IMG/VR virus record: IMGVR_UViG_2565956727_000003
Coordinates: 1 to 36,978 of that record
Source of the DNA: a virus
Taxonomy: Duplodnaviria > Heunggongvirae > Uroviricota > Caudoviricetes
Reading direction: 5' to 3' (one strand)
DNA: 36,978 bases
Each line of letters opens with the position of its first letter. Position 1 is the first letter of the stretch. This document shows positions 9,701 through 12,700 of this stretch, piece after piece. A program made the position numbers.

Positions 9701-12700
9701 AAGCCCGACGACGCCGCGAATAACCCGGGGATTTTCATCCGCAAACTTCGTGAATTTTTCCCCTAACTCCCCCAGCCATTGCGTGATATTTTTGGCGTCA
9801 CCAGAAAATGCGCCGCCAATAGCCGCAAGGCCGTTAGTTGCGGTCCCCGTCATTGCCTCCCACAGGTTGGACAGCGTTCCAAGCTGGGCCTGAACACGTT
9901 TATTCAGGCTGGCCTGTTTATTCATCTTCTGCTGGATCTGATCGTAGCCATCCTTTCCTTTATCGATTAGTGTATTGACCACCTGAAGGGTTTCGGCATC
10001 ATCACCAAATATTGCCTTAAGTACACCTGTTCGCTTAACGTCGGTCAGTTTTCGCAGCTTTGCCAGTTGCTTAAACATGTTATCAAGACCGCCAAAACTC
10101 CCTTTGCCGTCAGTAAAATCGAGCTGCACTCCGAGTTTCTGGCGGGCCATGACTTTATTGACGTCCCTGATTTTCTTAACGCTTAATCCGGACTGGATAA
10201 CTTTTCGCAGGGCATTACCTGCCGACTCCCCGTTCATCCCCATCTGATCCATCATGACGCTGATAGGGGCAAGGCTCTGTGCAGCCTGAAGTCCGTCCTT
10301 ATTCACCATCTTCAGAACAGAACTGGTTTTAGTGAAGAAGGACAACATGTTGGTATCGTCAACGCCCAGATAAAACGCCTTCTGGATAGTGTCGAACAGC
10401 CCCATCATGTCTTCTGACGCCGTTCCGGTAGCATCCTGCATCTTTGCAGCAAACTCAGCAGCCGCTTCCGGTGTTTTTTTCAGTTGTACCGCAAGATAAG
10501 CTGTCGCTTTACCCACACCACCAAGAATGTTTTCTGCCGGGATCCCCTGACGCACCAGCATCTGCATCATGTTCTGGAAATCAGCCGTTGTACCGGGTAG
10601 CTGGTTACCCAGGCCAATAGCCAGTTTATTGATGTCCTGAAAGCTCTTTCCAACCTCGCCGTTCGCATCCATCATGGCGACTTTCAGCCCGGTGGCGGCG
10701 TTTTCCTGATCAGCATAAGATTTCAGGGAAAGCGTCAGACCCGCTGCCAGTCCGCCACCAAGCGCCAGCCCACCCTGTGACGCTTCTTCCGCCTGGCGTT
10801 TAAATCCCCGGATTTTCTTTTGCATTTTCGACAGCGCGGGAGAAAGCCTGTCGACACCGGTGATCAACGCCTTAAGCTCAAATTCAGCCATGTGTGCGTT
10901 TCTCCTGCTCTATCCTGTTTGCCTGACTGACCAGCAAGGGAATTTCACTGATCGGCATATTCAGCAATTCGAAGGGATTAATGCGCCAGTAGCTGGCGCA
11001 GTCAAAGAAGCGATCAGTGAGGTATTCAGCCGTCAGGCCTGGAGGAAAAAACCAGCCACAAGCCACGCGGCTGCATTCAGGTCTGCCGGAGACATCTGGT
11101 CGACAGAGCTTTGCGGCACTTTCGCCAGCCGCACAATGTATTTCGACACCACATGCGCCAGAAGTCTGACGGACTCATCCTGATTCATCTGGTAGGGATA
11201 CCCCAGCTCGCGGACATCCTTCCCGGTGGGTTCATCAAACTCCAGTACGGAGAGTGTCTCACCATGAGCGATAATCGGTTTCTTTAACTCAAGCTCTTTC
11301 ATTACTGGTAATCCCCTTCTTCACCGTGGAACTCAAGATCAACCGTGCCTTCTTCGGCATTATGGTTCGCTTCTCCGTGCAGCCAGGCGGACGACAATAC
11401 ATAGACCTGACCGTTCGCCAGCTCGGCAGTGATTGTCATCTCATCAGACGAGGTGATTTTGCTCACCGGAAAATTCTTCGGCACCTTGAAGGTCCCTTTG
11501 ACATAAGGCGCACGGTGAGTTTCCTTGCGGTCCACTGAACCGTCCAGGCCGATGATGTCATCATTGACCGTCCTGTTCATGGGCACCTCAATGCCGCCGG
11601 TCAGCGATAGCTGCTGACCGTCAATTTTGAAATAACAGGTTCCCCCGATACGGGCCATTATGCAGACTCCTCTGAATACTGAAGACGGAACTGGTTAACC
11701 ACGGCAAAAACACGCAACTGGTTAACATAGTCAGGCGGGAACAGCGTGTTCAGGCGGTTCGGATCGCTGGCATCACGCTCCACAACCAGGTACTGCTTAA
11801 ACAGTTCGTAGTTTTCCACGATCCCCGCACGCTCAAGCTGACAGTAGGTTGCCAGCAGTTCCCCTTTGATTACCGCCGGGGTGACAATCGCCTGACCGGG
11901 ACCAAAGCGGGTACCGTCGCTGGCAAGCTTGTGACGCCCGTACTTACTGGTAATGACGGATTTCAGTTTGCGCAGTACATACGCACTGGTATGCAGCGTC
12001 TCGCTGTCGAGGTAGCTGTTATCCGCAACCCCGTAAGCATTTTTCCTGTACGTGGTGACATCACGCTGAATGCGCAGCACCCCGCTTTCGACATACGCCG
12101 TTGCCACGCCATGAGACAGCAGGGTCTGCTGCTCGGTCATCGTGAACCGTTTCCCCTTCGGCGCAGGCAGCATACCCACCAGCTCACCGGTCTGCGTGGG
12201 ACGTGCCGGATCGTTGCGGATAAACACCGCTGCGCGGGCGGTACGGCTTGCCGCCAGCTCGTCGGCAGGCGTCTGGGTCTCTTTTTCGTACCCCGCCAGG
12301 GTGATGTGCTGCTGGTTAAACTGGTCACCTGCGTTCACCAGTTCTGACAGTGTGCCGGTCTTTGCCGTATACACATGACCATACAGCTGACGCGCATAGC
12401 TCCAGCGACCGCTGGTATCGTTCATTTCGGTCACCAGCGTGTTAACGGAGGCCGTGTCGTTGAACGGCAGACCGATATAATCAAACGGCTCATCCGCCAT
12501 TGCAGCCACCGCGCCGGTGAGAACCGGAGCGCCCGTTCCGGCGGTCCCCGTCGCCACGGCAATCTGTACGCCCGCTGGCAGCACTTCGCCCCCACCGAAG
12601 CCGTAGTAATTGAGGCTGACAGGAATTTCATTCCCGCAAAGCCCCTTATGACGCGCGGTCAGCGTGACAACACCAGCCGAAGATGAAGCTGTAAACGGCA

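Follow-up and report, generated by a model that had tools for sequence, protein, structure and literature searches.

The 36,978-nucleotide stretch considered here (the window: positions 1 to 36,978 of the IMG/VR virus record IMGVR_UViG_2565956727_000003, Caudoviricetes) is an SfV/SfII-type prophage that carries, on its minus strand between the tail tube and tape measure genes, a small tail assembly chaperone gene overlapped by an open reading frame (ORF) in the -1 frame. We consider it likely, with a probability of about 0.88 judged from sequence comparison, that a programmed -1 ribosomal frameshift at this locus yields both the chaperone and a longer fusion of the chaperone with the product of the -1 ORF. 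Most ribosomes would synthesize the 89-residue chaperone and terminate at the TGA at 11035-11033. A minority would slip by -1 on U_UUU_UUC (11051-11045) with tRNA-Phe in the P and A sites, both tRNAs re-pairing on UUU, and would then read 53 further codons in the -1 frame to give a 139-residue fusion ending on a TGA that overlaps the tape measure ATG. By analogy with phages lambda and P2, the N-terminal domain common to both products would coat the tape measure protein, and the tail tube protein would be brought in by the extension. Tail assembly would depend on a fixed, low ratio of the long to the short form, and virions would contain neither. It is from these systems and from the comparisons below that we infer that slippage occurs, how efficient it is and what each of the two domains does.

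The chaperone gene (11033..11302, minus strand), recognized from the ORF list and its Pfam and phrog matches, is a gpE/gpG analogue. Residues 4-86 of its 89-residue product match PF10109 Phage_TAC_7 (E=2.4e-15; 56.7 bits, the gathering threshold being 25), which is the family of P2 gpE, Mu gp41 and gp14 and is described as 'tail assembly chaperone proteins E, or 41 or 14'. The protein further matches phrog_166 'tail protein' (E=4e-23) and is labelled 'phage tail assembly protein' by PGAP; an NCBIfam scan returned no matches. The 0 frame ends in ...GCT GGT TTT TTC CTC CAG GCC TGA, where the slippery heptamer T_TTT_TTC (11045..11051, minus strand) is in the X_XXY_YYZ phase and the stop codon (11033..11035) lies three codons past it. 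The codons UUU (P site) and UUC (A site) both specify Phe, and a slip of -1 lets both tRNAs pair again on UUU. The frame thus entered reads TTT TTT CCT CCA GGC CTG ... and stays open for 53 codons up to the TGA at 10886-10884. This extension (10884..11045), an analogue of the E' or T domain, overlaps the tape measure start (ATG at 10891-10889) by 8 nucleotides at its stop, in the string ATGGCTGA. The sequence-only reading of this DNA had placed the end of the 89-residue ORF just past the heptamer and had described the -1 frame as open from there to the tape measure start; its coordinates prove exact. The predicted fused coding sequence (CDS) is complement(join(10884..11045,11045..11302)), with predicted products of 89 residues (9.94 kDa) and 139 residues (15.79 kDa). 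The fusion would join ...WLVAGFF to PPGLTAEY..., giving the junction peptide ...AGFFPPGLTAEY... and the long tryptic peptide VPQSSVDQMSPADLNAAAWLVAGFFPPGLTAEYLTDR. The extension matches phrog_32181 (E=2e-41). An AlphaFold2 model of the fused product from the single sequence reached a mean confidence score (pLDDT) of 46 and was unusable.

The strongest support comes from the conservation of this arrangement. Since the best 80 loci of an earlier scan of viral contigs with the chaperone were all 100% identical, that scan was not usable for assessing conservation and was replaced by a scan of one genome per species with targeted contig look-ups; a search with the extension peptide added four loci. 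The resulting 28 loci comprise 20 distinct SfV-type sequences, four of an SfIV group and four distant ones. The SfV-type set spans 15 genera, all of the Enterobacterales: Escherichia, Shigella, Edwardsiella, Buttiauxella, Citrobacter, Atlantibacter, Scandinavium, Kluyvera, Pantoea, Cronobacter, Leclercia, Enterobacter, Kosakonia, Mangrovibacter and Hamiltonella. The in-phase heptamer, the -1 ORF and its ending at the tape measure start are kept in 28/28 loci, some of which have chaperones of only 26-41% identity, the heptamer being U_UUU_UUC in 23 and U_UUU_UUU in five. Within the SfV type, TTTTTTC is invariant and in phase in 20/20 sequences, the extension always terminates at the tape measure start, and the 0-frame stop lies three codons past the heptamer in 19 of the 20, with four codons in Hamiltonella. 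SfIV, phiP27, ST64B and YeP1 carry a second group of chaperone alleles, which are 26-37% identical to the window protein. They have T_TTT_TTT followed by A at the homologous 'FF' position (2147 in the SfIV locus L100, 2156 in phiP27, L101, 2148 in ST64B, L102, and 2143 in YeP1, L103), and their 0 frame runs 7-22 codons further. Their extension is recognizably homologous, with the pattern W.INPLEL..IS...A.RIN.E..HG*, and stops on the tape measure ATG. The same layout is seen in the four distant loci, with TTTTTTC in three and TTTTTTT in one; their chaperones share 34-62% identity with that of the window.

The pattern of substitution points in the same direction. Mean pairwise differences at the first, second and third codon positions are 0.158/0.093/0.512 in the 0 frame upstream of the heptamer, 0.191/0.111/0.393 in the -1 frame past the 0-frame stop and 0.161/0.068/0.528 at the tape measure start. 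This third-position periodicity in the -1 frame past the heptamer indicates that selection acts on the peptide encoded there. The heptamer itself is distinguished by its synonymous sites: 38 degenerate chaperone codons are invariant in amino acid across the 20 sequences and only four of these are invariant as codons, three of them being the consecutive GGT-TTT-TTC. Each of the remaining conserved Gly codons uses 3-4 synonyms, against GGT in 20/20 for the Gly next to the heptamer. At the level of sequence, this is the signature expected under selection on the nucleotides of the heptamer, including the T of the Gly codon. Taken with the phase of the heptamer and the selection in the -1 frame, it supports the proposal, made from the window alone, that these chaperone genes use a programmed -1 frameshift.

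The bare heptamer is uninformative on its own, as the two strands of the window together hold 21 copies of TTTTTTC, where dinucleotide shuffles predict about 10 (only 1 of 100 reaches 21). This abundance is what could be said for a chance or decayed feature, in which a slippery-looking run happens to lie near a stop codon with a fortuitously open frame behind it. Against it stand the retention of heptamer, phase, extension length and tape measure overlap in all 28 loci, down to 26% chaperone identity, and the substitutions in the -1 frame, whose pattern is clearly that of a protein-coding sequence. Position and phase are also far more restrictive than the motif: among 69 in-phase heptamers found across the 105 ORFs of at least 80 residues on both strands, only two lie at most 25 codons from the stop and have a -1 frame that remains open for at least 30 codons past it. 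The chaperone site is the only one of its kind among the real genes of the window. We regard the chance explanation as scarcely credible and as effectively refuted by the comparative data. The second qualifying heptamer belongs to a 97-residue ORF (6370-6663, plus strand) lying antisense to the minus-strand gene of the baseplate hub (6591-7670); this ORF is almost certainly spurious.

A different possibility is that the -1 ORF is an independent small gene, translated either from its own start, the GTG at 11066-11064, or by termination-reinitiation at the chaperone stop. In its favor, the phage record ON470584 lists the region as a separate hypothetical protein, the extension forms a group of its own (phrog_32181), and stand-alone ORFs of 53-70 residues have been called in relatives. 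These short calls, with arbitrary starts, are the only relatives of the extension among 1.84 billion representative proteins, and most of them begin upstream of the conserved FF. The comparative data speak against a start of this kind. The sole in-frame start-like codon upstream of the heptamer is at -15, which is the GTG in the window. It varies by lineage, being GTG in E. coli and Shigella, ATG in Edwardsiella, TTG in Kluyvera and CTG or no start-like codon elsewhere. Candidate extension starts form an anti-Shine-Dalgarno (anti-SD) duplex of about 0 kcal/mol, compared with -5.5 to -11.7 kcal/mol for the chaperone and tape measure starts; the tape measure gene has its own AGGAG at 10902-10906, with a duplex of -7.4 kcal/mol. 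Moreover, conservation of the coding sequence sets in right at the heptamer, which in most lineages precedes any usable start. Hence neither a conserved start codon nor a conserved Shine-Dalgarno (SD) sequence for the -1 ORF was found across the compared relatives; an independent start with its own SD, which the sequence-only reading had named as the finding that would overturn it, is absent from them.

Reinitiation has somewhat more specific support. In Hamiltonella (ATGA; 1470-1500 of locus L104) and in the metagenome locus L113 (GTGA; ~555-570), a -1-frame start overlaps the 0-frame stop, which is the typical arrangement for translational coupling, and the heptamer is kept in both. The stop-overlapping codon is CTG in the window, CTA in EPP-1, GTT in locus L110 and TTA in the SfIV group, and given this variation start-stop coupling is not conserved. 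An independent gene would also leave the synonymous invariance of GGT-TTT-TTC unexplained, and we judge it highly improbable. A natural in-frame fusion of chaperone and extension was likewise not found among the 1.84 billion representative proteins. Six candidates from metagenome and Logan assemblies (P0001-P0006, 107-139 residues) were rejected for several scattered indels or frame errors and are assembly artefacts around homopolymer runs. Long matches to multiple stretches of the extension (P0124-P0127) proved to be tandem-repeat proteins and were discarded as false positives.

The fusion could alternatively arise at the level of the mRNA, with RNA polymerase adding one U within the T6 run and thereby joining the frames in some transcripts. 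The site is of the right kind for this, being a homopolymeric run of T (T6 in the window, T7 in the SfIV/ST64B group), and, as the protein product would be the same, comparative sequence data cannot separate the ribosomal from the transcriptional route. However, efficient transcriptional slippage in E. coli usually needs a run of ~8-9 or more A or T, against which T6 is short. Furthermore, the locus retains a strict X_XXY_YYZ phase, the third-position T of GGT (20/20) and a 3' pyrimidine. These features fit tRNA re-pairing and would not be demanded by a simple requirement for run length. UUUUUUU and AAAAAAA runs are avoided in E. coli genes, possibly on account of slippage (PMC4066793), which lends the transcriptional route some plausibility; against it, the annotated shift site of P2 is TTTTTTG (attributed to Christie 2002; PMC3091744). 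Overall, transcriptional slippage appears very unlikely as the source of the fusion, and a ribosomal shift on the heptamer is the better account.

The closest known system is the E/E+E' pair of P2, rather than the lambda G/GT pair. The P2 RefSeq record NC_001895 annotates E (91 residues) and E+E' (142 residues, as a joined CDS), with the -1 site in TTTTTTG; the shift has been attributed to Christie 2002 and Xu 2004 (PMC3091744), where no canonical stimulator was reported. Both loci share the order sheath, tube, small chaperone, -1 extension and tape measure (in P2, the FETUD tail operon), an upstream ORF belonging to PF10109 (E=1.4e-12 for P2 E) and a U6N heptamer close to the end of the short ORF. 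The products are of similar size, 91/142 residues in P2 and 89/139 here, and in both the stop of the extension overlaps the ATG of the tape measure gene (T in P2) by 8 nucleotides, in ATGAGTAA and ATGGCTGA, respectively. A further likeness is that no canonical stimulator was found here either. Translating the fused frame and setting it beside E-E' homologs, as the sequence-only reading had suggested, gives the P2 architecture. The two differ in the heptamer itself (TTTTTTG in P2, TTTTTTC here and TTTTTTT in the sister alleles), in the distance from it to the 0-frame stop (seven codons in P2, three here), in a chaperone identity of only 19%, and in that the tail module of the window is otherwise Mu-like.

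Lambda shares with the window the general plan of two products with a common N terminus, produced by a -1 shift between the major tail and tape measure genes; it differs in its G_GGA_AAG heptamer and non-contractile tail, and no sequence similarity to lambda gpG/gpGT was detected. In lambda, tail assembly requires gpG and gpGT in a fixed ratio of ~30:1, and virions contain neither of them; the G part binds the tape measure and the T part the tube protein (PMC5009743). Mu has the tail module most similar overall (sheath, tube, DNA circulation protein and gp44-like hub), its gp41 falls weakly in PF10109, and ~144 nucleotides separate it from the Mu tape measure gene. However, Mu is reported to shift by -2, not -1 (PMC5009743; PMC2628397). 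Its gp41 has 144 residues and matches PF23746, which the window chaperone does not, and the end of gp41 lacks an in-phase X_XXY_YYZ heptamer. The open downstream frame of the window is -1 and not +1/-2, which sets it apart from the Mu gp41 type. The description of the locus as a conserved G/GT-type arrangement with a U-rich heptamer thus stands as to conservation and heptamer, with two amendments: its nearest relative is P2 E/E+E', not lambda, and a U-rich heptamer is nothing unusual for this family, given the TTTTTTG of P2. The sequence evidence supports the view that the site is an ordinary, strongly conserved and hitherto unannotated member of the P2 E/E+E'-type chaperone frameshifts.

Several observations nevertheless weigh against a programmed frameshift of this type. 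The fusion protein is a prediction from the nucleotide sequence. Even at E<=10, PF06528 Phage_P2_GpE does not match the extension of the window or those of 14 relatives, whereas P2 E' scores 2e-22. Alignment of the extension profile to the P2 E' sequence with hhalign is collinear over 42 columns (P=4e-4), with a probability of 34%. Homology of the extension to P2 E' is therefore plausible but unproven. It is also conceivable that the extension is translated from a coupled independent start in Hamiltonella and L113, lineages which may have such a start in addition to, or as an alternative to, the frameshift.

The apparent lack of a stimulator likewise counts against it. No SD-like element is conserved 3-20 nucleotides upstream of the heptamer, where the anti-SD duplex in the window amounts to -1.5 kcal/mol. 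The downstream stimulatory structure that the sequence-only reading had thought worth looking for did not emerge: no structure is conserved within 45 nucleotides downstream of the heptamer, and hence none at the canonical spacing of 5-9 nucleotides. Folds of these proximal 45 nucleotides range from -4 to -10.5 kcal/mol and differ in shape between relatives. An Rfam scan gave no match. A 4-bp hairpin (GGCC/GGCU) 5 nucleotides past the heptamer was considered as a stimulator and rejected, as it is not conserved. The site thus falls outside the canonical stimulated class of -1 programmed ribosomal frameshifting (the IS3/IS911, dnaX and coronavirus type), which is defined by a hairpin or pseudoknot that begins 5-9 nucleotides 3' of the heptamer, by an SD-like element 6-17 nucleotides 5' of it, or by both. 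In E. coli reporters, UUUUUUC without a stimulator shifted at only 0.12%, rising to 0.89% with the IS911 stimulator and 7.6% with the IS3 pseudoknot; the corresponding values for UUUUUUG, the P2 heptamer, are 0.12%, 0.25% and 0.77% (PMC4066793 Table S3). On the other side, U_UU.U_UU.C belongs to the class H_HH.U_UU.Y, whose members count among the most efficient motifs for -1 shifting in E. coli (Sharma et al. 2014, PMC4066793).

The conserved structures that do occur downstream of the heptamer begin at 24 and 44 nucleotides. The more distal one is an 8-bp hairpin, UGCGCCAG-CUA-CUGGCGCA (10982..11000, minus strand; ~-13.7 kcal/mol in the folds), which lies inside the extension 44 nucleotides 3' of the heptamer. 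It is retained in 16 of 17 distinct extension sequences (-12.2 to -13.7 kcal/mol); Hamiltonella alone has lost it. The four synonymous sites of its stem are fixed, and nearby conserved residues change codon; since the stem never varies, there is no evidence from covariation. The hairpin is too distant for a canonical frameshift stimulator; it may reflect constraints on amino acids and codons, or it may protect a ribosome-poor stretch. A candidate long-range 10-bp stem (10945..11020, minus strand), pairing TCACTGATCG (11020-11011) with CGATCAGTGA (10954-10945), would enclose the hairpin. The minimum free energy fold of 122 nucleotides that includes this stem has z=-3.5, and 80.8% of the alignment cells in the stem are paired; five pairs show double changes, which come from only ~2 lineages, making the long-range stem possible on weak evidence.

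That this RNA structure, the hairpin possibly together with the long-range stem, is a functional element of the recoding cassette strikes us as doubtful. Were it so, the structure could tune frameshift efficiency in an unconventional way, from a distal position. Alternatively, it could shield a ~140-nucleotide ribosome-poor stretch from Rho or RNase E, sparing the tape measure and downstream tail genes from polarity. A strong stem-loop is likewise present in the P2 E' region (~1736-1778 of the P2 locus, L098), where CUGAUGGCGG...CCGCCAUCAG encloses an inner hairpin. This stem-loop lies ~50 nucleotides past TTTTTTG, in a 150-nucleotide region with z=-2.9, and its position aligns with that of the SfV-type hairpin. 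The SfIV/ST64B allele group and Hamiltonella have no such element there; one paper that screened 60 bp downstream in P2 reported no structure. A general tendency of E'-type regions to be highly structured was considered and rejected: z-scores are -1.9 to -2.9 in the SfV type and P2, against +1.0 to -1.3 in SfIV, phiP27, ST64B and YeP1 and 0.0 in Hamiltonella.

As recoding is expected in a long-tailed phage, the site changes no concepts, and its value is mainly for annotation: in every record examined, the long product is either absent or wrongly entered as a hypothetical protein standing alone. A joined CDS is absent from the PGAP annotation of E. coli and from the records of SfV, SfII, SfI, SfIV, phiP27, ST64B, EPP-1, AH07 and YeP1. 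PGAP (E. coli) and the original SfV annotation leave a gap of 141 nucleotides, which ON470584 fills with its separate hypothetical protein. The group phrog_32181 (63 positions), presently of 'unknown function', is the frameshift extension of the chaperone family and can be relabelled accordingly. Xu et al. 2004 reportedly surveyed 28 phages, which the PRFect supplement does not list, and SfV may already be included in that survey. Neither the SfI nor the SfIV genome paper mentions a frameshift or a chaperone; this prophage is not among the prophage clusters of Sharma et al. 2014. Beyond annotation, the locus provides a well-sampled family in which an intrinsically weak heptamer (0.12% in reporters) is strictly conserved in the absence of a canonical stimulator. 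It thereby poses a modest puzzle as to how the chaperone shifts of phage tails attain a useful efficiency.

The locus is widespread in E. coli. A 1-kb query covering the chaperone, the -1 ORF and the sequence on either side matches several E. coli chromosomes at 100% identity, and 895 of 5,426 complete genomes of this species contain at least 80% of it. Two Escherichia phages and the serotype-converting Shigella phages SfII, SfI and SfV are 98-99.5% identical to this query. Pfam and phrog matches give the order, along the minus strand, of sheath, tube, Phage_TAC_7 chaperone, -1 ORF and tape measure, so that both overlapping ORFs are situated between the tube and tape measure genes, the position by which chaperone pairs of long-tailed phages are recognized. 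The sheath gene (11658..13154; 498 residues; PF04984/PF17482/PF17481) marks the tail module as contractile, of the Mu/P2 type. Directly upstream of the chaperone lies the tube gene (11302..11658; 118 residues), which matches PF10618 Tail_tube with E=2e-33. The tape measure gene (9056..10891; 611 residues) matches PF10145 (E=1e-26) and the tape measure groups phrog_28/17727. The minus-strand genes below 9056 are Mu-like and code for a DNA circulation protein and gp44/45/46-like baseplate components, including the hub.

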